A stretch of DNA of 64,000 nucleotides from the sequence record OR062945.1; one strand, written 5' to 3'. How positions within the stretch are numbered: position 1 is the first letter of the stretch; each line of letters begins with the position of its first letter. Shown in pieces: positions 48,549-59,127 of the stretch. Position numbers and translations under genes: made by a program. Origin of the DNA: Escherichia phage 308Ecol101PP. The notes beneath the pieces are model-generated. The model had not been told where the DNA came from, did not search any database, and saw nothing but the letters and a program-made list of their open reading frames with translations.

Positions 48549-51260
48549 ATGAAAGAATTTTACTTAACGGTTGAACAGATTGGTGATTCAATTTTTGAAC
48601 GTTACATCGATTCTAACGGCCGTGAACGTACTCGTGAAGTAGAATATAAACCATCACTGTTTGCTCATTGTCCAGAAAGTCAGGCTACGAAATATTTCGA
48701 TATCTACGGTAAGCCGTGTACTCGTAAGTTGTTCGCCAATATGCGTGATGCCTCCCAATGGATTAAACGCATGGAAGATATCGGACTTGAAGCACTTGGC
48801 ATGGATGATTTCAAATTGGCGTATTTGTCTGACACTTATAACTATGAAATCAAATACGACCATACAAAAATTCGTGTGGCTAACTTCGACATCGAAGTAA
48901 CATCTCCGGACGGGTTCCCTGAGCCGTCACAAGCAAAACATCCGATTGATGCTATCACTCATTATGACTCAATTGATGACAGGTTTTATGTATTTGACCT
49001 TTTGAATTCTCCATATGGTAATGTAGAAGAATGGTCTATTGAAATCGCTGCTAAGCTTCAAGAACAAGGCGGTGATGAAGTTCCATCTGAAATTATCGAT
49101 AAAATCATTTATATGCCGTTCGATAACGAAAAAGAATTGTTGATGGAATATCTCAACTTCTGGCAACAGAAAACTCCTGTCATTTTGACTGGATGGAACG
49201 TTGAGTCATTTGATATTCCATATGTGTATAACCGAATCAAGAATATTTTTGGCGAATCTACTGCGAAACGTTTATCACCACATCGTAAAACTCGTGTTAA
49301 AGTTATCGAAAACATGTATGGTTCTCGTGAAATCATTACATTGTTCGGTATCTCTGTTCTTGATTACATTGACCTTTACAAAAAATTCTCTTTTACCAAT
49401 CAACCATCATATTCTCTGGATTACATTTCAGAATTTGAATTGAACGTTGGTAAACTGAAATATGACGGCCCTATTTCTAAGCTTCGTGAAAGCAATCACC
49501 AACGATATATTTCTTATAACATTATCGACGTGTATCGTGTATTGCAAATTGATGCTAAACGTCAGTTCATCAACTTGAGTTTGGACATGGGTTATTATGC
49601 TAAGATACAGATTCAATCTGTGTTTAGCCCAATTAAAACATGGGATGCTATTATTTTTAATAGCCTTAAAGAGCAGAACAAGGTGATTCCACAAGGTCGT
49701 TCTCACCCGGTTCAACCTTATCCCGGCGCTTTTGTTAAGGAACCTATTCCAAATCGATACAAATATGTAATGAGTTTCGACCTTACATCTCTGTATCCAA
49801 GTATTATTCGCCAAGTGAATATTAGCCCAGAAACAATAGCAGGAACGTTTAAAGTAGCTCCACTACATGATTATATTAACGCAATCGCTGAACGTCCTTC
49901 TGATGTGTACAGTTGTTCTCCTAACGGCATGATGTATTATAAAGACCGTGACGGTGTTGTTCCAACTGAAATCACTAAAGTCTTTAATCAACGTAAAGAA
50001 CATAAAGGTTACATGCTTGCAGCTCAACGTAATGGCGAAATAATTAAAGAGGCATTGCATAATCCTAATCTTTCTGTTGACGAACCATTAGATGTTGATT
50101 ATCGTTTCGACTTCAGTGATGAGATTAAAGAAAAGATTAAAAAGTTGTCTGCTAAATCTCTTAATGAAATGTTGTTTAGAGCTCAACGTACTGAAGTTGC
50201 AGGTATGACTGCCCAAATTAACCGTAAATTGCTTATCAACTCACTTTATGGTGCACTTGGCAACGTTTGGTTCCGTTATTATGATTTGCGTAATGCTACT
50301 GCAATCACAACATTCGGGCAAATGGCTTTACAGTGGATTGAACGTAAAGTTAATGAATATCTGAATGAAGTTTGTGGCACAGAAGGTGAAGCTTTCGTTC
50401 TTTATGGTGATACAGACTCTATTTACGTATCTGCTGATAAAATTATCGATAAGGTTGGTGAATCTAAATTCCGTGATACCAACCATTGGGTAGACTTCTT
50501 AGATAAGTTTGCACGTGAACGTATGGAACCAGCTATTGATAGAGGTTTCCGTGAAATGTGTGAATACATGAACAATAAACAACACTTAATGTTCATGGAC
50601 CGAGAAGCTATCGCTGGGCCTCCACTCGGTTCTAAAGGTATTGGTGGATTCTGGACTGGTAAGAAACGTTATGCATTAAACGTGTGGGATATGGAAGGAA
50701 CCAGATACGCTGAGCCTAAACTCAAAATCATGGGTCTAGAGACTCAGAAATCTTCGACTCCTAAAGCAGTACAGAAAGCTCTTAAAGAATGTATTCGTCG
50801 TATGCTTCAAGAAGGTGAAGAATCATTACAAGAATATTTTAAAGAGTTTGAAAAAGAATTCCGTCAATTGAATTATATTAGCATCGCGTCGGTATCTTCT
50901 GCGAATAACATTGCTAAATATGATGTAGGTGGATTCCCTGGTCCTAAATGCCCGTTCCATATTCGTGGAATTCTGACGTATAACCGGGCTATCAAAGGTA
51001 ATATCGATGCACCGCAAGTTGTAGAAGGTGAAAAAGTATATGTTCTGCCTTTACGTGAAGGAAACCCATTCGGTGATAAATGTATCGCATGGCCTTCTGG
51101 TACTGAAATCACAGATTTAATTAAAGACGATGTACTTCATTGGATGGACTACACTGTTCTCCTTGAGAAGACATTTATTAAACCACTTGAAGGATTCACA
51201 TCAGCAGCGAAACTCGATTACGAGAAGAAAGCATCTCTGTTCGATATGTTCGATTTTTGA
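48549..51260 (+). CDS. 43: DNA polymerase gp43 (family B), uninterrupted
   Basis: 903 aa; exo motifs FDIE and YNIIDV, pol motifs DLTSLYPSII, KILINSLYGALG, YGDTDS; sequence matches my recollection of RB69 gp43. Confidence 0.97.
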   Translation: MKEFYLTVEQIGDSIFERYIDSNGRERTREVEYKPSLFAHCPESQATKYFDIYGKPCTRKLFANMRDASQWIKRMEDIGLEALGMDDFKLAYLSDTYNYEIKYDHTKIRVANFDIEVTSPDGFPEPSQAKHPIDAITHYDSIDDRFYVFDLLNSPYGNVEEWSIEIAAKLQEQGGDEVPSEIIDKIIYMPFDNEKELLMEYLNFWQQKTPVILTGWNVESFDIPYVYNRIKNIFGESTAKRLSPHRKTRVKVIENMYGSREIITLFGISVLDYIDLYKKFSFTNQPSYSLDYISEFELNVGKLKYDGPISKLRESNHQRYISYNIIDVYRVLQIDAKRQFINLSLDMGYYAKIQIQSVFSPIKTWDAIIFNSLKEQNKVIPQGRSHPVQPYPGAFVKEPIPNRYKYVMSFDLTSLYPSIIRQVNISPETIAGTFKVAPLHDYINAIAERPSDVYSCSPNGMMYYKDRDGVVPTEITKVFNQRKEHKGYMLAAQRNGEIIKEALHNPNLSVDEPLDVDYRFDFSDEIKEKIKKLSAKSLNEMLFRAQRTEVAGMTAQINRKLLINSLYGALGNVWFRYYDLRNATAITTFGQMALQWIERKVNEYLNEVCGTEGEAFVLYGDTDSIYVSADKIIDKVGESKFRDTNHWVDFLDKFARERMEPAIDRGFREMCEYMNNKQHLMFMDREAIAGPPLGSKGIGGFWTGKKRYALNVWDMEGTRYAEPKLKIMGLETQKSSTPKAVQKALKECIRRMLQEGEESLQEYFKEFEKEFRQLNYISIASVSSANNIAKYDVGGFPGPKCPFHIRGILTYNRAIKGNIDAPQVVEGEKVYVLPLREGNPFGDKCIAWPSGTEITDLIKDDVLHWMDYTVLLEKTFIKPLEGFTSAAKLDYEKKASLFDMFDF

Positions 51261-51300: not shown

Positions 51301-51936
51301 ATGAAAACTACTCCTATTACTATCGCTATTGACGCAATCATAAAACAAGCTTCTTCTTTGGCCGCTATGGCCAAAGTAATTAGTCAAAACCCTGCTCGTT
51401 ATAATGCTATTCTAGAAACTCTTCGACGCCCAGGACTTAGTAATTATGAAAGCCGAGTAATTATTACAGGTGTTGGTAAGAATGCTAATATTGCAACTAA
51501 AGCTTCTGAGACATTTGCTTCACTTGGTATCCCGAGTATGTACTTGAACACTGGGCATTATTCTCACGGTGATGCAGGATTCATTGCGCCTAATGATGTG
51601 TTGATTCATATTAGTCGTTCTGGTAAAACTGAAGAAATGATAGGCGTGGCTAAGCATCTTAAAATGATTCGTCCGAACGTCAAACAGATTCTGTTGCATT
51701 GTAACCCGGACATTCCACAAGAATACGAAGCTCTTTTTGATTATACGTTCTGTACAGGCATCGCAGTAGAGGTTGATGAGAATTCTCTGGCTCCGACCAT
51801 GTCCACTACATTGTTGTTAGCGCTTATCGATACGTTTGCTATCAACCTTTCGTCTGAACGTGGATTTACCTCTAATGACTTCCTTAAGTTCCACCCTGGT
51901 GGTGCACTAGGTGCCATGTTACGAGGCGAACAATGA
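51301..51936 (+). CDS. SIS-domain sugar-phosphate isomerase (KdsD/GmhA-like)
   Basis: VIITGVGKNANIATKASETFASLGIP...VLIHISRSGKTEEM: SIS-domain Gly-rich loop plus S-x-S-G-x-T-E motif. Confidence 0.7.
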   Translation: MKTTPITIAIDAIIKQASSLAAMAKVISQNPARYNAILETLRRPGLSNYESRVIITGVGKNANIATKASETFASLGIPSMYLNTGHYSHGDAGFIAPNDVLIHISRSGKTEEMIGVAKHLKMIRPNVKQILLHCNPDIPQEYEALFDYTFCTGIAVEVDENSLAPTMSTTLLLALIDTFAINLSSERGFTSNDFLKFHPGGALGAMLRGEQ

Positions 51937-52076
51937 AAGCAATAACAATAGGACTTTTACTATTGATGCTTGTCATGACTATCTACTGGAGCTTAACGGC
52001 TCCAGTAATGATTCCGACTCTTATAATCGGATGGATTATGATTGGACTACAAGCAAAGTATGAATGCTTTAACTAG
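51933..52076 (+). CDS. Small membrane ORF (47 aa)
   Basis: MKAITIGLLLLMLVMTIYWSL...; ATGA-coupled to SIS gene; below ORF-track threshold. Confidence 0.4.
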   Translation: MKAITIGLLLLMLVMTIYWSLTAPVMIPTLIIGWIMIGLQAKYECFN

Positions 52077-52117
52077 AATAGTGTACAATACTCCTACTTA
52101 CCAATGAGGACCACAAC

Positions 52118-53803
52118 ATGAAAAAAGCTGTTATTCTTGGTGCTGGACTGGCAACTCGTTTGTATCCAATAACGCATCATATTCCTAAGGTGCTTGTTAA
52201 CTATAAACAAGACACTATTCTGAGCAATTTGTATACAATTTATTCTGACCTTGGCGCAGATGAAATTATTGTAGTAGTTCATTCAAAATTTGCTGAAACT
52301 GTTCGAGCTTATTGTGAGCAAGAAGGGTTCAATGTGACTATTCGTACAGTTGATGAAGCGTATGGTTCTGCTTATGCTCTTGCTAAATTGCACAAAGATT
52401 TAGACGGCCATAATGTAATTGTTAACTGGTGTGATATTATTCCTGATTTTGGTTCGTGGTCTTGGAATGTTAACGCAATCTATGTTAAGGGTGACGAATG
52501 TCGATATAATTTCGACGGTGAAAATATCACTAATGTAGGTTCAACAGGTGGTAATGTTGTAGGAATTTATCAGTTCAAAGACTGGGAATTCTATATGGGT
52601 TCTACTGATGAGGAAATTCATGAATACTGCAAAGGACGTGATTTCGTAGAATTCCTTTACGGCAGCGCATTCAATAAATCAGAGCTTATGAATCTAATTG
52701 ATTTAGGTGATATGCCTAAACTTGAAAAAGCTCATGAAGTTCGTGAACTTAATCGTAGTTTTAATGCAGTTGAAATTGGTGAAGAAACTGTAACTAAATT
52801 CGCATTAACCGAACAGGGCCGAGCTCTTCAGAAAGATGAGATTTCATGGTATCTTAAAGTGAAATCAGATTCAGTTCCTCAGTTAGTTTCTGTTAATGAA
52901 AATAACTTTGAAATGGAACGCATTAAAGGTAAGCCGGCATTTGAATATATTAAATCCAAATCAAGTCTTGCTCGTCCACAAATTGTTGATGCAATTTTAG
53001 ATGCACTGAAATTCAGCACAGACACTTATTTTGTAAGTCCTGAAACTGTTCGTCGTGATTTCACTAAAGAATTCTATACTAAAGTTATTGATCGTTGTGA
53101 AAGTATTCAACCATTGATTGATTCATTTGGTAAAATCACACATGTGAACTACACTAAGATTGGGCGTCTGAAGCCAATGTTGAAACAAGCTTTAGAACAC
53201 CTTATTCGTTATCATAACCGTTCTCAGGGACAGTACTCTGTTATTCATGGTGACCCGAACTTCAGTAATACTATGATTACTGATAATGGTGAAGTCAAGT
53301 TTATCGACCCTCGTGGATATTTTGGTGAAACCAAGATTTATGGGCCAAAATTGTATGATGAAGCTAAAGTGCTTTACGCTGTTTCAGGTTATGATGAATT
53401 CAACGCTAATCCGACTTGGGGACAGTTTACTATTGATGAAACAACTTGTAATGTGACTATTAACATCAATCCGTTAGTTTACAAATATGGAAAGATGAGT
53501 TCGTTTAACGAGTATCATCATTTGGCAGTGGCAATTATCTGGATTGCATTAGGTGGTTATTTCAAGAATAATCCACTTAAAGCGGTAGCCGCATATTATA
53601 AAGGTATGGAACTTCTGACTAAGCAATTACGTAATATGGGCCGTGTACTTCAGGACGGCACTATTAGTTATGATGTAGCAGAACCTGTAACGGCTACTCT
53701 GATTACAAAAAATCCTGGTAAATGGGTACTAACTGATAAAGAAACTGGTGTTTCTTATCGTCCAATCGGTGGCGATATCACTCATCAATGGGAACGAATC
53801 TAA
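52118..53803 (+). CDS. Bifunctional sugar-1-phosphate nucleotidyltransferase (N-terminal) / kinase-like (C-terminal) protein
   Basis: N-terminal MKKAVILGAGLATRLYPIT resembles RmlA/LicC G-x-G-x-R-L motif; C-terminal ...VIHGDPNFSNTMITDNGEVKFIDPRGYFG... resembles choline/aminoglycoside kinase-fold catalytic loop. Confidence 0.7.
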   Translation: MKKAVILGAGLATRLYPITHHIPKVLVNYKQDTILSNLYTIYSDLGADEIIVVVHSKFAETVRAYCEQEGFNVTIRTVDEAYGSAYALAKLHKDLDGHNVIVNWCDIIPDFGSWSWNVNAIYVKGDECRYNFDGENITNVGSTGGNVVGIYQFKDWEFYMGSTDEEIHEYCKGRDFVEFLYGSAFNKSELMNLIDLGDMPKLEKAHEVRELNRSFNAVEIGEETVTKFALTEQGRALQKDEISWYLKVKSDSVPQLVSVNENNFEMERIKGKPAFEYIKSKSSLARPQIVDAILDALKFSTDTYFVSPETVRRDFTKEFYTKVIDRCESIQPLIDSFGKITHVNYTKIGRLKPMLKQALEHLIRYHNRSQGQYSVIHGDPNFSNTMITDNGEVKFIDPRGYFGETKIYGPKLYDEAKVLYAVSGYDEFNANPTWGQFTIDETTCNVTININPLVYKYGKMSSFNEYHHLAVAIIWIALGGYFKNNPLKAVAAYYKGMELLTKQLRNMGRVLQDGTISYDVAEPVTATLITKNPGKWVLTDKETGVSYRPIGGDITHQWERI

Positions 53804-54189
53804 TGCACCGTGTAAAAAACATGCTTAATCTTTGTTTTGATGTCGATGATTGTATAACAGAGTGGAATAACAATCGTGATTACGTGAACTTCAAACCAGA
53901 CGTCGAAATGGTGTCTGCCATTAATGCCCTGTATGATGCAGGGCATACCATAACGCTTTACACTGCTCGCGGTATGAAGTCAGTAGGTCCTGGTCGTATA
54001 GCAATTGACATTCTCCCAAGTCTGATTCAGAACTTGGCAAACATTGGATTGAAGTACCATAATTTGCTAACACATAAACCAGTATATGATTGGATTATCG
54101 ACGACAAAGCTATGCGTCCTGACGAATTCAAAGCTCTTATGAATAAAGGCGAATTCGAAACATTTAAATCATATAAACCGAATCTATAA
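53803..54189 (+). CDS. HAD-superfamily phosphatase-like protein (tentative)
   Basis: N-terminal LNLCFDVDDCIT resembles HAD motif I (D-x-D); TAATG overlap with upstream gene. Confidence 0.5.
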   Translation: MHRVKNMLNLCFDVDDCITEWNNNRDYVNFKPDVEMVSAINALYDAGHTITLYTARGMKSVGPGRIAIDILPSLIQNLANIGLKYHNLLTHKPVYDWIIDDKAMRPDEFKALMNKGEFETFKSYKPNL

Positions 54190-54235
54190 TAATTTAAGTA
54201 AGACCTGCAAAAACCATCGCATCAATTAACGTGGG

Positions 54236-55411
54236 ATGCAAAAAAAAAAAATGAATACTTTTAAAATCGGAACGAATTTTGATTTAGCTCTTCTTGATAA
54301 AATCGTAGAGCTCAATAAAACTTATCCTAATAGCTTGATAAACGAAGTATACGGCTCTACAAGAGAAATGGCTTTTGTAGCAGCCAGACCTGATTTTAGG
54401 CTTCCTGACGTTGACAAAAAGATGTTAGAAGATTACGTTAAACGTTGTAACGAATTAGGTATTTGCTTTAACTATACACTCAACACGATAAATCCTGGTT
54501 CAAAAAGAGAACTAGTTGAGTGGAAGAAGAAAGCTATTCAGGATTATGTTCAGTATCTTTGGTCAATAGGCGTATGGCGTATTACTATCGCTAACCCTGT
54601 TGTTATGGAAATTGTTCGTGAAGTCAATAAAGACATTGAGATTGAAGTTTCAACAATTCTACATGTCGATGCTGTAACTCAAATCAAATACTTGCATGAC
54701 CAATATAATATCAAAAAGGTCTGCTGTGGAATTCATAAGAACCGTTCAGTTTCTTTCCTGAAACGTGCAGCAGAGTTTTGTAATAAGAACAATATAATAT
54801 TTGAAGTTCTTGTAAATGAGTTCTGTTCTAATGCTGGTAAAGGGTACACAACACATTGTAGCTATCGTGACTCTTGCTATATTTTCCATAGCACCGATGT
54901 TACAGTAGATGATGCCAAATCCTTAAATGGATATCCAATGCAACACTGTATTAAAGCTCGTGATACAGATCCATTTAACTGGTTGAGAACTCGTTTTGTT
55001 CGTCCTCAAGATTTGAAACTTTATAATGATATTGGTATCACTCAATTTAAAGTTTCAGGACGTACAGGTAGCACCGACTACATTTTAAAAGTTCTTGAAG
55101 CTTACGCTTCTGAAAAGTTTGAAGGTAATTTGTTGGAATTGTGGAAGCCTTTAGAGACCATTTTCACTCTTGAAAATGAGACTGAGTTTTCACATACGGT
55201 AAATATTGAAACCTCTTTGTTAGACGGCTTTTTAGAAAAAAGGTGGTTCAAACATCCAGATTTCGATTGTGCTAATGAAATCTGCGGGACGACGTGTACA
55301 TATTGTGAAAGATATTATAAACGTCAGTTATCTAAAAATGGGTTATCAGAAAACTCTATATCTATTATTGATATAACTAACTCTGATGACGCTTTGAGGT
55401 ACCCAGAATGA
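54236..55411 (+). CDS. Hypothetical protein with Cys-rich C-terminus (candidate modification enzyme; fold not recognised)
   Basis: 391 aa; C-terminal CANEICGTTCTYCERYY; A12 homopolymer at 54240-54251 between two candidate start codons (54236 and 54251). Confidence 0.65.
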   Translation: MQKKKMNTFKIGTNFDLALLDKIVELNKTYPNSLINEVYGSTREMAFVAARPDFRLPDVDKKMLEDYVKRCNELGICFNYTLNTINPGSKRELVEWKKKAIQDYVQYLWSIGVWRITIANPVVMEIVREVNKDIEIEVSTILHVDAVTQIKYLHDQYNIKKVCCGIHKNRSVSFLKRAAEFCNKNNIIFEVLVNEFCSNAGKGYTTHCSYRDSCYIFHSTDVTVDDAKSLNGYPMQHCIKARDTDPFNWLRTRFVRPQDLKLYNDIGITQFKVSGRTGSTDYILKVLEAYASEKFEGNLLELWKPLETIFTLENETEFSHTVNIETSLLDGFLEKRWFKHPDFDCANEICGTTCTYCERYYKRQLSKNGLSENSISIIDITNSDDALRYPE

Positions 55412-55569
55412 TTTCTAGAAAAACTTTTAACCACCAACTTAACGAAGAGATTTTGACTATTAAAATTAACAGCAACGAACAAATTCTTAAAAAGGCCCTT
55501 ATGGGCCTGTTTGAAACTAAAGCGGCTAAAGTGATTAAAGAAACCTGTTCAACTAGAATACTACGCTGA
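55408..55569 (+). CDS. Small ORF (53 aa), doubtful
   Basis: ATGA overlap with upstream gene, but contains a GGCCC-TTAT-GGGCC hairpin that may instead be a terminator. Confidence 0.25.
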   Translation: MISRKTFNHQLNEEILTIKINSNEQILKKALMGLFETKAAKVIKETCSTRILR

Positions 55570-55689
55570 TGCATTTCTTCATAGTGTTCTTGGAAATATC
55601 GATGCTGAAGCTTTACGTTATATCAACATCGCTAAGAAATTCAAATAAGCTTTATGAATTGAGTATATAATAACTGTATTGAGGTAAAC

Positions 55690-56406
55690 ATGGGAAAACA
55701 TAACACAATGAAATATATTAAAGCCGCAGATTTTCAATCCGCATTTAAAGCTGTCAATCGTGAAATTTTAGAAAATCCACAGTTCGTTACTGATTCTCGT
55801 ATTGGACGTTGTAATGAAATTGGGTCTATGACAGTAGTTGTTGATACCCCTTCATCATTCAAAATGACCGACCCACGTATTAATCGCATCTCTTATGAAT
55901 ATGCTGAAGATTTCTGGAAATTTATGATTTCTGGTGGTACTGATGCAAAAGAAGCATTTAAGGCATATCCTAACGTTGCTAAATTTATTTCTAAACCTAA
56001 ATCAGACGCTTTGCCTGCAAACTTCAACACTTTCTATGGTCCACGAATTGCGGCCCAGTTACCAGCTCTTCTCAAAGAACTTAAAGAGAAACCTAATTCA
56101 CGAAGAGTTGTGTTTCAAATTCTTGAAAGTTCAGATCAGGCTTTGCTTGATTCGGATGAAACGCTTGAATATCCATGTACTGACTCAGTGACTTATTATA
56201 TTCGTGATGGTAAGCTTTATACCCACTGTCATATGCGTTCTCAGAACTGTGCTGTTGTTATGCAGTTGGATTTTTATCTCCAAGGAAAATTACTTCATTA
56301 TATCGCTAACGAATGTGGTGTAGAAGTTGGTGATTATACTCATACCATGGTAAGTGCCCATGTGTTTGAACGTGATTTTGATTATGTTAAAGGATTCCTT
56401 GACTAA
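55690..56406 (+). CDS. 42: Thymidylate-synthase-fold pyrimidine hydroxymethylase (gene 42-like, divergent)
   Basis: ...KPNSRRVVF...YPCTDSVTYYIRDGKLYTHCHMRSQNCAV...SAHVFERDF parallels T4 gp42 NPDSRRG...CTNTVQYLIRDKKINAVVNMRSNDVV...SLHVYSRHF; N-terminal half diverges. Confidence 0.7.
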   Translation: MGKHNTMKYIKAADFQSAFKAVNREILENPQFVTDSRIGRCNEIGSMTVVVDTPSSFKMTDPRINRISYEYAEDFWKFMISGGTDAKEAFKAYPNVAKFISKPKSDALPANFNTFYGPRIAAQLPALLKELKEKPNSRRVVFQILESSDQALLDSDETLEYPCTDSVTYYIRDGKLYTHCHMRSQNCAVVMQLDFYLQGKLLHYIANECGVEVGDYTHTMVSAHVFERDFDYVKGFLD

Positions 56407-57305
56407 TGGCTATTTTCCGCGTACCTATCTTGAGTATGCGGTCTTATGAAACTGGACAGTATGCTATCCTTAAGGATGGCAACTTCCAACTTCATTTGCA
56501 CCGTGCTAATCCGGGTGATGTGATTACATATCCACGTAATGCATCTGATATTAAAGAATGCGAACGTCTTTTTCCAGAATTTAAGTTTGTTCCATTATGG
56601 TATAAAGATAACGCGTATAACACTCGTAAATATTTCTGGTCTGAAAATGAATTTGTGGTTGATTCATTAATTGCTTATTATGATTGTGATTTTCTAATCA
56701 CAGATATCACTGGATATGACGGCGCTTTTGATGTGGAATTCAATTTCAATATCACTGCAGACCCTAATAAACCACGTTTTTATATTGACGAATTCTTAAA
56801 AACCGACATGTTGTCGGTTAATCGTTCACTTCAAACTACTGTGTTGAATGAACGTCAAAAAGAAGTGCTGGTTAACGCAGGTGCAGATGGTAATAAGATT
56901 ATCGTAACCCAGAAAGTTATACGTCCTTCCATCATGCAGCGTCTTGTAGGTGATTTGGCTCCTATTCATCTAGATGGTATTTTTCATCCATTTCGAATTA
57001 GTGACCCGTGCTATCGTTTTGAACAAGTGGTTGAATGTGCAATTCAATTAGGTCAACCGCTTTATATAACTGATCCAAATAATAGTTTCGACAGAAATAA
57101 GTATCCTGAAGAAGCGCTGATTCGAATTTTTAATCCAACTAAAACTGAGTACTATCAAATTCTTAAAGGACGTCCGAAGATTCAATATTTCGAAAATCCT
57201 GAAGAAGTATTCCATCCAGGTCTTGGTGAGTTCATCTACTTTAATGCTTTAATTTCTTCGCCGTATAATATACCTAAATACGAAGATGTCGTAATCGAGG
57301 AATAA
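56406..57305 (+). CDS. Hypothetical protein at the beta-gt position (candidate glycosyltransferase; fold not recognised)
   Basis: 299 aa; TAATG overlap with gene 42-like; occupies the slot where T4 has beta-glucosyltransferase. Confidence 0.6.
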   Translation: MAIFRVPILSMRSYETGQYAILKDGNFQLHLHRANPGDVITYPRNASDIKECERLFPEFKFVPLWYKDNAYNTRKYFWSENEFVVDSLIAYYDCDFLITDITGYDGAFDVEFNFNITADPNKPRFYIDEFLKTDMLSVNRSLQTTVLNERQKEVLVNAGADGNKIIVTQKVIRPSIMQRLVGDLAPIHLDGIFHPFRISDPCYRFEQVVECAIQLGQPLYITDPNNSFDRNKYPEEALIRIFNPTKTEYYQILKGRPKIQYFENPEEVFHPGLGEFIYFNALISSPYNIPKYEDVVIEE

Positions 57306-57306
57306 A

Positions 57307-57855
57307 ATGGTTAAAATTATTTTAGTAGATGGCCCGGATAATGCCGGTAAAACAACTTTCATTAATGACATAATGGAAATTAGTGAAAGATATGTAAAGA
57401 TTGATTTCCCTAAACGAACAGTTGATGGACGTTTCGATGTTAAGTCTCGAAATGAAGTTGGCTGTTTCGAAACGATGTTGAATTATTTAGACCCTACTAA
57501 GATTTATCTGTTAGACCGTGGATATATTAGTAACTGGGTTTATGGACGTATTCGACAAGATGCGGACTCGGTTCTTGACGTTTATGAACAGGATTATGTT
57601 CGTCTTTGCCAAAACCATGATGTGTTCACAATTATTTTAACACGTAACGAAATGACTGAAAGTTTTGAAGACGACCTTATTACTTTGTCTTCATTCGGTT
57701 TTAATACAGTCATTTCATATTTTGAAGAGTTTGCAATTCATAACAAAATCCAAACGTATCAATTACTTAATCATGACGGTGCTAACAAAGTTATAGGATT
57801 TAATGCAAGCGAACGTAATTATTTGATTACAGAAATTATCAAATGGGCTCGTTAA
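57307..57855 (+). CDS. P-loop nucleoside/nucleotide kinase-like protein
   Basis: MVKIILVDGPDNAGKTTF Walker A; LLDRGYISNWVYG resembles the thymidylate-kinase DR(Y/H) region. Confidence 0.65.
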   Translation: MVKIILVDGPDNAGKTTFINDIMEISERYVKIDFPKRTVDGRFDVKSRNEVGCFETMLNYLDPTKIYLLDRGYISNWVYGRIRQDADSVLDVYEQDYVRLCQNHDVFTIILTRNEMTESFEDDLITLSSFGFNTVISYFEEFAIHNKIQTYQLLNHDGANKVIGFNASERNYLITEIIKWAR

Positions 57856-57954: not shown

Positions 57955-59127
57955 ATGTCTGATTTAAAATCTCGTCTGATTAAAGCTTCTACTTCTAAAA
58001 TGACTGCAGACTTGACTAAGTCTAAGCTGTTTAATAATCGTGATGAAGTCCCTACTCGTATTCCGATGTTGAATATTGCATTAGGTGGTGCACTGAATGC
58101 CGGGTTGCAATCAGGCTTAACTATTTTTGCTGCTCCTTCTAAACACTTTAAAACGTTGTTTGGGCTGACCATGGTTGCAGCATATATGAAGAAATATAAA
58201 GATGCAATTTGTTTGTTCTATGATTCAGAATTTGGTGCTTCAGAATCTTATTTTCGTTCAATGGGTGTTGATTTAGACCGTGTAGTTCATACTCCTATTC
58301 AATCTGTCGAACAACTTAAAGTTGATATGACTAATCAGCTTGACGCGATTGAACGTGGTGATAAAGTTATTATCTTTATCGATTCAATCGGTAATACTGC
58401 ATCTAAGAAAGAAACCGAAGATGCGTTGAACGAGAAAGTCGTAGGTGATATGTCTCGTGCTAAGGCACTTAAATCTCTTTTCCGTATTGTGACCCCGTAT
58501 CTGACTATTAAAGATATTCCGTGTGTTGCAATTAACCATACAGCAATGGAAATCGGCGGATTGTATCCTAAAGAGATTATGGGCGGTGGTACAGGTATTC
58601 TTTATTCTGCCAACACGGTATTTTTTATCTCTAAACGTCAGGTTAAAGAAGGCACAGAATTGACCGGTTATGACTTCACGTTGAAAGCAGAAAAATCTCG
58701 AACCGTTAAAGAAAAATCTACTTTCCCAATCACGGTTAATTTTGATGGTGGTATCGACCCATTCAGTGGCTTGTTAGAAATGGCAACTGAAATTGGTTTT
58801 GTAGTTAAGCCTAAAGCCGGGTGGTATGCTCGAGAATTCCTTGACGAAGAAACAGGCGAAATGATTCGTGAAGAAAAATCATGGCGTGCTAAAGCTACTG
58901 ATTGTGTAGAATTCTGGGGACCGTTGTTTAAACACAAACCTTTCCGAGACGCAATTGAAACTAAATATAAACTAGGTGCTATCTCTTCTATTAAAGAAGT
59001 TGATGACGCTGTTAATGACCTTATTAATTGCAAAGCAACAACTAAAGTTCCGGTTAAAACTTCTGATGCACCGTCTGCAGCAGATATAGAAAACGACCTT
59101 GACGAAATGGAAGATTTCGATGAATAA
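57955..59127 (+). CDS. uvsX: Recombinase UvsX (RecA-like)
   Basis: MSDLKSRLIKASTSKMTADLT...; matches T4 UvsX throughout. Confidence 0.95.
   Translation: MSDLKSRLIKASTSKMTADLTKSKLFNNRDEVPTRIPMLNIALGGALNAGLQSGLTIFAAPSKHFKTLFGLTMVAAYMKKYKDAICLFYDSEFGASESYFRSMGVDLDRVVHTPIQSVEQLKVDMTNQLDAIERGDKVIIFIDSIGNTASKKETEDALNEKVVGDMSRAKALKSLFRIVTPYLTIKDIPCVAINHTAMEIGGLYPKEIMGGGTGILYSANTVFFISKRQVKEGTELTGYDFTLKAEKSRTVKEKSTFPITVNFDGGIDPFSGLLEMATEIGFVVKPKAGWYAREFLDEETGEMIREEKSWRAKATDCVEFWGPLFKHKPFRDAIETKYKLGAISSIKEVDDAVNDLINCKATTKVPVKTSDAPSAADIENDLDEMEDFDE

Follow-up and report, generated by a model that had tools for sequence, protein, structure and literature searches.

A probable arabinosyl-5-hydroxycytosine gene cluster in Escherichia phage 308Ecol101PP, with a candidate prephenate-dependent hydroxylase of the U32 family

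Genes located between DNA polymerase and uvsX

We analyzed a window of 64,000 nucleotides (nt) from Escherichia phage 308Ecol101PP (sequence record OR062945.1) and focused on a 6.5-kb segment at positions 51,301 to 57,855. The segment is flanked by a 903-amino-acid (aa) DNA polymerase upstream (48549-51260) and by a 390-aa UvsX homolog downstream (57955-59127). Based on sequence comparison, we are highly confident that it is the arabinosyl-5-hydroxycytosine (ara-5hoC) cluster of the Mosigviruses, equivalent to gp55-gp45 of phage RB69 and to the Afh proteins of phage HY126. One of its genes encodes a protein of the Peptidase_U32 family (54251-55411). We propose that this protein may be a prephenate-dependent, O2-independent C5 hydroxylase of cytosine (or uracil) deoxynucleotides or of DNA, and we judge the chances of this proposal to be evenly balanced.

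The segment contains seven open reading frames (ORFs), all on the + strand and arranged in tandem, with intergenic distances of -4 to +120 nt. A preliminary description of the window, made from the sequence alone, had placed seven consecutive genes between gene 43 and uvsX, and all of its coordinates were confirmed as ORFs. It had omitted a 47-aa ORF, a 53-aa ORF and an A12 tract, and its start for the U32 gene (54236) is probably wrong. In T4, the order in the corresponding slot is 43 - imm.1 - imm - 42 - b-gt - segA - uvsX. The preliminary description had also noted that a gene of the size of alpha-gt is missing between genes 55 and 47, and our ORF check agrees: the stretch from the 185-aa ORF (gene 55-like) to the 339-aa ORF (gene 47-like) has none of that size. 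The features of the segment are as follows.

51301..51936, + strand: predicted SIS D-arabinose-5-phosphate isomerase, homolog of RB69 gp55 (Pfam SIS, NCBIfam KpsF/GutQ, identity to HY126)
51933..52076, + strand: conserved, very hydrophobic 47-aa ORF that overlaps the stop of the SIS gene by 4 nt
52118..53803, + strand: bifunctional AfhE-type enzyme, 561 aa, RB69 gp52:53 (NTP_transferase and kinase-like region)
53803..54189, + strand: AfhF-type HAD-like phosphatase, 128 aa, RB69 gp51 (PDB 9iqw, NCBIfam EcbF-BcbF)
54240..54251, + strand: A12 homopolymer at the start of the U32 gene (leader or N-terminus), of differing length among relatives
54236..55411, probable start 54251, + strand: Peptidase_U32-family Fe-S-type protein, 391 aa, homolog of RB69 gp50 (Pfam U32, hhalign, AlphaFold2 (AF2) fold)
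55408..55569, + strand: 53-aa ORF at the chorismate mutase site of related genera, probably not conserved
55690..56406, + strand: thymidylate synthase (TS)-fold 5-hydroxy-dCMP synthase, homolog of RB69 gp48 (identity to PDB 9iqc/9ir2)
56406..57305, + strand: candidate GT-B-fold DNA arabinosyltransferase 1, 299 aa, homolog of RB69 gp46:47 (predicted structure)
57307..57855, + strand: P-loop thymidylate-kinase-like (TMK-like) nucleotide kinase, 182 aa, homolog of RB69 gp45 (weak P-loop/dTMP-kinase matches)

At the nucleotide level, Escherichia phage F2 shares 98.7% and HY126 97.9% identity with the 6.5-kb segment, and 151 phage records span 80% of it or more. The encoded proteins are 97-100% identical to their HY126 counterparts and follow the same order. 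Because of this nucleotide identity to F2 and HY126, together with the protein identity to HY126 and RB69, we assign the window to Mosigvirus, that is, to an RB69-like phage. The 98% nucleotide identity further suggests that cytosine in the virion DNA is replaced by mono- and di-arabinosyl-5-hydroxycytosine.

The chemistry of this modification comes from published work on related phages. Lee et al. 2026 (NAR) found mono- and di-arabinosyl-5-hydroxycytosine in RB69 DNA using liquid chromatography with tandem mass spectrometry (LC-MS/MS) and nuclear magnetic resonance (NMR), with NMR placing the arabinose in a direct ether link to C5 (PMC13326640). The same chemistry was confirmed in another Mosigvirus, phage NP (PMC13390438), and Acinetobacter phage DLP3 carries mono-, di- and tri-arabinosyl-5hoC (PMC13326640). 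Thus, the cluster belongs to a system that is already known, from work published between 2018 and 2026, and the finding as submitted adds no new biology. The preliminary description had recognized a non-glucose DNA hypermodification module in place of the T4 glucosyltransferases, which matches the published ara-5hoC cluster. It had been unaware of established step-by-step enzyme assignments, and such assignments appeared in print in 2025-2026 (Mahler 2025, He 2026, Lee 2026).

The sugar branch would begin with the SIS-domain protein, which is 100% identical to that of HY126. It matches Pfam SIS (E 1.7e-10) as well as NCBIfam KpsF/GutQ (113 bits) and KdsD (107 bits), over the SIS part only. As predicted for RB69 gp55 (PMC13326640), it would convert ribulose-5-phosphate into arabinose-5-phosphate. 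The 561-aa protein, 97% identical to its HY126 counterpart, has an N-terminal NTP_transferase domain (residues 3-99, E 8.5e-10) and a weakly matching C-terminal APH/choline-kinase-like region (residues 308-409, E ~1e-3); its PDB match is LicC (1jyk). For HY126, work of He et al. 2026, as summarised in PMC13326640, identified AfhE as both an arabinose-5-phosphate 1-kinase and a UDP-arabinose pyrophosphorylase, and AfhF as a Mg-dependent phosphatase that turns arabinose-1,5-bisphosphate into arabinose-1-phosphate. By analogy, the kinase domain in our window would produce arabinose-1,5-bisphosphate, the HAD phosphatase would strip the 5-phosphate to leave arabinose-1-phosphate, and the nucleotidyltransferase domain would yield UDP-arabinofuranose. 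In an earlier study, Thomas et al. 2018 (PMC6024577) had named ORF055c and ORF53_52c as the UDP-arabinose candidates of RB69. The 128-aa HAD protein is nearly identical to PDB 9iqw (E 6e-87 over residues 1-128). Because this match spans residues 1-128, we place the start of the gene at 53803. It also matches the NCBIfam EcbF-BcbF capsule biosynthesis phosphatase (E 3.7e-13), while a Pfam scan returned no match. The pathway logic of the preliminary description is sound: it had read isomerase, kinase, phosphatase and nucleotidyltransferase as an ADP-heptose-like route to a nucleoside diphosphate (NDP)-sugar, with the phage making its own activated donor, and the published route to UDP-arabinofuranose bears this out (PMC13326640).

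The base branch centers on the TS-fold protein (Pfam Thymidylat_synt, E 2.4e-15). All 238 of its 238 residues are identical to PDB 9iqc/9ir2. The HY126 protein, a homologous enzyme of which was crystallised by He et al., is likewise 100% identical, and RB69 ORF048c is 98.7% identical. RB69 gp48 binds flavin and makes 5-hydroxy-dCMP with oxygen taken from 18O2, the product 5hodC having a mass of 243 Da, or 245 Da under 18O2, by LC-MS (PMC13326640). Judged from these orthologs, the TS-fold protein is a flavin- and O2-dependent 5-hydroxy-dCMP (5hodCMP) synthase. It would hydroxylate dCMP at C5, as shown for the orthologs; kinases would then take 5hodCMP to the triphosphate, and the phage polymerase would insert 5hodCTP instead of dCTP. 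We note that, for the PDB entries 9iqc, 9ir2, 9iqu, 9iqw and 9ir0, the protein functions are not apparent from the molecule names chosen by the depositors ('Thymidylate synthase', 'Capsule biosynthesis protein').

For the transfer step, we predict from modeling that the 299-aa protein, encoded directly downstream of the TS-fold gene at the position of T4 beta-gt, is a GT-B glycosyltransferase that would place the first arabinose on the 5-hydroxyl. Pfam, NCBIfam and PDB sequence searches returned no match, and BLASTP showed no similarity to T4 beta-gt (E 3.6). Its AF2 model (pLDDT 94.6) has Foldseek matches to MshA (3c4q), sucrose-phosphate synthase (6kih), UDP-GlcNAc 2-epimerases and the HY126 glycosyltransferase 9ir0. 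The RB69 homolog gp46:47 is the predicted first arabinosyltransferase, responsible for the base-proximal arabinose (PMC13326640). The second arabinose would be added by a transferase encoded outside the window. PDB 9ir0, a 367-aa 'phage HY126 glycosyltransferase with UDP', is probably that second arabinosyltransferase. The last gene of the cluster encodes a 182-aa protein with only a weak P-loop/dTMP-kinase signal in Pfam and NCBIfam and with only chance-level matches in a PDB sequence search (E >= 0.058). RB69 gp45 is listed as TMK-like by structure (Table 1 of PMC13326640), with a predicted action on a nucleotide, and a TMK-like kinase gene is present in all 15 of 15 Straboviridae-like loci from IMG/VR.

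Among the remaining features, the 47-aa ORF (51933-52076) is identical in HY126 and ~70% identical in Winklervirus Virsaitis27, while Acinetobacter phage DLP3 does not have it. Its product may be a small membrane protein; the Virsaitis27 copy has no Pfam match. A promoter and terminator scan of the cluster returned sites no more frequently than in shuffled sequence.

The U32-family protein and its genomic neighborhoods

The 391-aa protein contains 13 cysteines and matches Peptidase_U32 (PF01136) with an E-value of 6.6e-11 and 42.4 bits, against a cutoff of 22.4. Its AF2 model (pLDDT 91) is a TIM barrel whose top PDB fold match is the U32 structure 5d88, while a PDB sequence search gave no match. 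A profile of 123 homologs aligned by hhalign with E. coli TrhP, RlhA, UbiU and UbiV at a probability of 96-97% (E ~1e-9), and the invariant C208-X5-C214 pair aligns with the Fe-S ligands C170/C177 of TrhP. Nine cysteines are invariant in the 123 homologs, including C163, C197, C238 and a C-terminal CX4CX3CX2C. The protein is also the most conserved of the cluster, with 80-89% identity across genera as compared with 60-83% for the DNA polymerase and 69-82% for the TS-fold enzyme. The preliminary description had listed the 391-aa and 299-aa proteins as glycosyltransferase candidates and had suggested structure prediction with Foldseek as a check. The 299-aa model has the GT-B fold, so this candidate stands, while the U32 domain and TIM-barrel fold of the 391-aa protein rule out a glycosyltransferase.

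The characterized members of the U32 family act in hydroxylation pathways. RlhA is required for 5-hydroxycytidine in rRNA (ho5C2501), TrhP is required for prephenate-dependent formation of 5-hydroxyuridine in tRNA as a back-up of the O2-dependent TrhO, and UbiU/UbiV hydroxylate ubiquinone anaerobically with prephenate as the oxygen donor (PMC5727448, PMC6599085, PMC10990095).

The start of the U32 gene is marked by a homopolymer of variable length, which sits between two in-frame ATGs. Among near-identical phages it varies from A12 in our window to A7 in one IMG/VR locus (L014) and A5 in HY126, in which a TAA stop comes after the upstream ATG. The true start is probably 54251 rather than 54236, and the variable A-tract leader could tune U32 translation in the manner of a contingency tract.

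Genes of the shikimate pathway recur next to the U32 gene. In Winklervirus (Virsaitis27, CHI14 and LC53), a CM_2 chorismate mutase gene overlaps both the stop codon of U32 and the start codon of the TS-fold gene, and in Shewanella phage Thanatos the U32-chorismate mutase pair is relocated together within the cluster. All 54 phage records with this chorismate mutase (54/54) are Straboviridae, with the gene inside this cluster. It is also found in 12 of 15 Straboviridae-like IMG/VR loci, based on ORF labelling, and in Pectobacterium phage PM2 (tblastn). The phage enzymes keep residues R11, R28, K39, E52, S84 and Q88 of the E. coli chorismate mutase. At the corresponding site in our window, where most related genera have the chorismate mutase gene, a 278-nt stretch separates U32 from the TS-fold gene. 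Among Mosigviruses, the ORF at this site is 40 aa long in HY126, 53 aa in our window and 79 aa in L014. The 53-aa ORF (55408-55569) overlaps the stop codon of U32 and has no Pfam match and no similarity to chorismate mutase by tblastn or by a hidden Markov model (HMM) of the phage enzymes. The differing ORF lengths suggest loss or replacement at this site.

The U32 subfamily is also represented, in divergent form, in 36 uncultivated viral loci (40-58% identity), which correspond to 26 lineages at 80% identity. Many of these loci are on contigs of 130-470 kb. A DAHP synthase, or a fusion of DAHP synthase and chorismate mutase, adjoins U32 in 5 of the 26 lineages. For one of these neighbors (L011), we considered a KDO8P synthase, an enzyme that uses arabinose-5-phosphate, and rejected it because the protein scored 237 bits as DAHP synthase and 63 bits as KDO8P synthase. 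An unbiased Pfam census of 131 genes flanking the divergent U32 genes gave Thymidylate_kin as the commonest family (9), followed by DAHP_synth_1 (6), Pol III alpha (4), CM_2 (4) and SIS (4); RecA, dNK, dUTPase, dCMP deaminase and uracil-DNA glycosylase were further families. Within five genes on either side of U32 in the 26 lineages, we counted genes like that of the 299-aa glycosyltransferase (GT299-like, 14), AfhE-like genes (11), SIS (8), dCMP deaminase (4) and DCD/dUTPase (3).

A TS-type hydroxylase was found within +/-10 kb of the divergent U32 gene in none of the 26 lineages (0/26). One ThyA-like gene near U32 (L030) was considered as a hidden 5hoC synthase and rejected, as it keeps L143, D169 and N177. 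Two loci, L013 (6474-14179) and L036 (9025-16299), share the order GT299-like - U32 - TAGT - DCD/dUTPase, preceded by a TMK-like kinase in L013 only. They further encode a 594-596-aa protein, a second TAGT-like protein and a UDP-galactopyranose mutase, and have no TS-type enzyme. From their gene content, these loci look like an undescribed system for glycosyl-5-hydroxypyrimidine modification of DNA.

Other divergent loci have different surroundings. On the phage-like contigs L008 (7447-9086; 466 kb) and L012 (7504-9083; 60 kb), a dCMP deaminase gene precedes that of the U32 homolog, and in L008 the end of the former overlaps with the latter. The U32 gene also adjoins genes for Pol III alpha, uracil-DNA glycosylase, thymidylate kinase and single-stranded DNA-binding protein. 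This context hints that some U32 members may act on dUMP rather than dCMP. In L009 (8001-15428) and L010, on metagenome contigs with dockerin and GH43 genes, a U32 homolog of ~49% identity is found with an NT5C deoxyribonucleotidase, a PnuC-like transporter, a deoxynucleoside kinase, a radical SAM/SPASM protein, a second U32-like protein and a nucleoside deoxyribosyltransferase-like protein. These two loci may represent a cellular or prophage deoxynucleoside-modification island of an anaerobe.

Among cultured phages, all 221 of 221 records with U32 are Straboviridae whose hosts, Enterobacterales or Shewanella, are facultative anaerobes. At each locus inspected, and in 15 of 15 Straboviridae-like IMG/VR loci, the gene is part of the 5hoC cluster. 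Among phage records with a match to the TS homolog, U32 was found in 0 of 64 from Acinetobacter and 0 of 22 from Rhizobium, and the DLP3 cluster is without it. We also considered whether U32 is universal in enteric 5hoC phages, and rejected this on account of Dhakavirus QL01, an E. coli phage without U32.

Possible functions of the U32 protein

We propose the hydroxylase function because of homology to the U32 family, linkage to chorismate mutase or DAHP synthase in two unrelated viral lineages, displacement of the TS-type enzyme, host range and conservation. Under anoxia, the putative Fe-S enzyme would supply the 5-hydroxy base as an anaerobic twin of the TS-fold hydroxylase. We liken this pair to the anaerobic ribonucleotide reductase that these phages carry (a genome landmark in PMC13390438). 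The prephenate would come from host PheA/TyrA in Mosigvirus and from the phage chorismate mutase in other genera, so that a phage-borne chorismate mutase or DAHP synthase would serve to supply the oxygen donor. In uncultivated phages without a TS-type enzyme, U32 would be the only hydroxylase feeding DNA glycosylation.

Several observations weigh against this proposal. BLASTP and phmmer comparisons of the phage protein with E. coli RlhA, TrhP, UbiU and UbiV were not significant. Of the canonical [4Fe-4S] motif CX6CX15CX3-4C, two of the four ligands align, while ligands three and four do not, and the extra C-terminal CX4CX3CX2C is peculiar to the phage subfamily. No remnant of a chorismate mutase was found at 55408-55690 in three frames (tblastn with two phage chorismate mutases and an HMM of 13), and a tblastn search of the whole window gave only one chance-level match (E 0.04). 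The correlation between U32 and hosts rests on few independent phage clades. Dhakavirus QL01 (L063, 4878-9589) has a reduced cluster with AfhE-like, HAD, TMK-like, TS-fold and glycosyltransferase genes; it is without U32, SIS isomerase and chorismate mutase, and it keeps the imm gene beside the polymerase. Because QL01 has the pathway without U32, the gene is an accessory one, dispensable under some conditions at least. Direct hydroxylase activity in vitro has not been demonstrated even for RlhA or TrhP (PMC5727448, PMC6599085, PMC10990095). Finally, Lee et al. (PMC13326640, Table 1) list RB69 gp50 as a 'sugar or heterocycle reductase' and leave it out of their discussion. Against the identity of the cluster itself we see next to nothing; for the SIS isomerase, the first arabinosyltransferase and the TMK-like kinase, the published functions are so far predicted ones (PMC13326640).

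The label of Lee et al. (PMC13326640) implies that U32, instead of hydroxylating the base, tailors a sugar or heterocycle, for example a pentose phosphate or NDP-pentose. We consider this unlikely, although the gene sits between the phosphatase and the base-modifying genes, often adjoins AfhE-like, SIS and glycosyltransferase genes in divergent viruses, and encodes a TIM barrel that weakly resembles many carbohydrate enzymes in structure. The DNA of DLP3 has mono-, di- and tri-arabinosyl-5hoC although this phage is without a U32 gene, and chorismate mutase and DAHP synthase, to which U32 is recurrently linked, have no part in pentose chemistry. In addition, U32 also occurs with no sugar genes around it, beside dCMP deaminase and Pol III alpha, and each characterized member of the family is tied to the hydroxylation of an aromatic or heteroaromatic ring (PMC5727448, PMC6599085, PMC10990095).

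We give still less credence to a role in RNA hydroxylation (of host or phage tRNA at U34, or of rRNA at C2501) as a takeover of translation unrelated to DNA modification. The host already has TrhP, TrhO and RlhA, the gene is confined in cultured records to Straboviridae of Enterobacterales and Shewanella and lies in the 5hoC cluster at the inspected loci, and the divergent homologs occur with DNA glycosyltransferases, dCMP deaminase, dUTPase/DCD, TMK-like kinases and a replicative polymerase. All of this runs counter to the one point in favor, namely that the known nucleic-acid substrates of the family are all RNA.

The third alternative concerns the cluster as a whole. The preliminary description had called the TS-fold protein a hydroxymethylase and had cited arabinosyl-hydroxymethylcytosine (ara-hmC) for RB69. 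In this reading, a gp42-like dCMP hydroxymethylase makes hydroxymethylcytosine (hmC), a self-made NDP-sugar is joined to the hydroxymethyl group, and the 391-aa and 299-aa proteins are the glycosyltransferases. An alignment of the active site with E. coli ThyA and T4 gp42 showed that Cys146 is kept and that L143E and N177D, the latter a change for cytosine specificity, are as in gp42. The alignment also showed D169N, whereas both gp42 and ThyA have D169; D169N is a predictor of 5hodCMP synthases according to Lee et al. (PMC13326640). Thomas et al. 2018 (PMC6024577) had reported arabinose in RB69 DNA and named the base ara-hmC from mass and high-performance anion-exchange chromatography data, and many GenBank records label the gene dCMP hydroxymethylase. 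However, that assignment has been termed erroneous (PMC13390438) and is refuted by the published LC-MS and NMR data for RB69 and NP, with 5hodC as the product of the RB69 ortholog and the ether link at C5 (PMC13326640). The identity of our protein to 9iqc/9ir2 and to the HY126 protein, and the U32 TIM barrel rather than a glycosyltransferase fold in the 391-aa protein, leave the ara-hmC reading very improbable; the enzyme is instead a hydroxylase. As for a collagenase-like peptidase, the historical family name and many GenBank labels ('peptidase', 'putative protease') speak for it, and we find it scarcely credible given surroundings of nucleotide and sugar metabolism with no peptidase context, nine invariant cysteines that suggest metal clusters, and characterized relatives that work in hydroxylation pathways.

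If the hydroxylase proposal is correct, it would be the first case of a U32 hydroxylase in DNA metabolism and of a virus that uses prephenate as oxygen donor, although an earlier proposal is possible. A full-text search retrieved no literature linking a phage U32 protein to hydroxylation, with He et al. (Nat Chem Biol 2026) and Mahler et al. (Cell Host Microbe 2025) outside its scope. Lee et al. (PMC13326640) cite the RlhA/TrhP hydroxylation pathways in their discussion and do not mention the family membership of gp50. The proposal would mean that enteric phages that destroy dCTP could multiply in the gut under anoxia, which disables the O2-dependent hydroxylase, and it would account for the odd shikimate-pathway genes in phages. 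It would also extend the U32 hydroxylase family to DNA substrates and offer a small, highly expressed model enzyme. Moreover, U32 beside glycosyltransferase, AfhE-like and TMK-like genes would become a marker for new 5-hydroxypyrimidine DNA modifications in uncultivated viruses of anaerobes.

Comparison with known systems

The closest known systems are the ara-5hoC clusters of RB69 (gp45-gp55, gp3) and HY126 (Afh). Genes and order are the same, the proteins reach the 97-100% identity to HY126 given above, and the TS-fold and HAD proteins match the deposited structures. Elsewhere in the genome, outside the window, lie the genes for the second arabinosyltransferase (RB69 gp3 type), a dCTPase and a gp1-type dNMP kinase. 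In the GenBank record of RB69, ORFs 46/47 and 52/53 are split; both are intact in our window.

The hmC glucosylation of T4 shares the slot between gene 43 and uvsX, a TS-fold enzyme acting on dCMP and post-replicative transfer from a UDP-sugar. The TS-fold enzymes of both have N177D and an acidic residue at position 143. However, gp42 keeps D169 and carries out folate-dependent hydroxymethylation, as opposed to the flavin- and O2-dependent hydroxylation expected here. Also unlike T4, the sugar here would be ether-linked to the C5 oxygen and the donor would be a phage-made UDP-arabinofuranose; there is no alpha-gt, and the 299-aa protein has no sequence similarity to beta-gt.

The E. coli systems TrhO/TrhP, UbiI-H-F/UbiU-V and RlhA involve homologous U32 proteins, with pyrimidine C5 hydroxylation in the case of RlhA and TrhP. 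As in TrhO/TrhP and UbiI-H-F/UbiU-V, the phage U32 protein appears to be paired, here within an operon, with an O2-dependent enzyme of presumably equal product and linked to enzymes that would form prephenate. The phage subfamily differs in its length of ~360-390 aa, in having CX5C instead of CX6C, in the positions of its other invariant cysteines and in the extra C-terminal CX4CX3CX2C. Its presumed substrate is a deoxynucleotide or DNA, instead of RNA or a quinone.

The sugar branch resembles the ADP-heptose pathway (GmhA, HldE and GmhB), which likewise combines an isomerase, an anomeric kinase that forms a bisphosphate, removal of the distal phosphate and nucleotidyl transfer. In both, the isomerase is of SIS type, the phosphatase is of HAD type and the kinase and transferase are fused. 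The pathway in our window would differ in using a pentose (arabinofuranose) and UDP, in having an APH/choline-kinase-like rather than ribokinase-like kinase, and in making a product for DNA rather than lipopolysaccharide.

Finally, the glycosylated 5hoC system of Rhizobium phage RL38J1 (PMC13326640) has a TS-fold 5hodCMP synthase beside a TMK-like kinase and a glycosyltransferase. There, a UDP-galactopyranose mutase supplies the furanose donor, and RL38J1 is unlike our window in using hexose sugars and in having no U32. The uncultivated loci L013 and L036 mirror its arrangement of kinase, glycosyltransferase and TS-type hydroxylase plus mutase, with U32 in the place of the TS-type hydroxylase.

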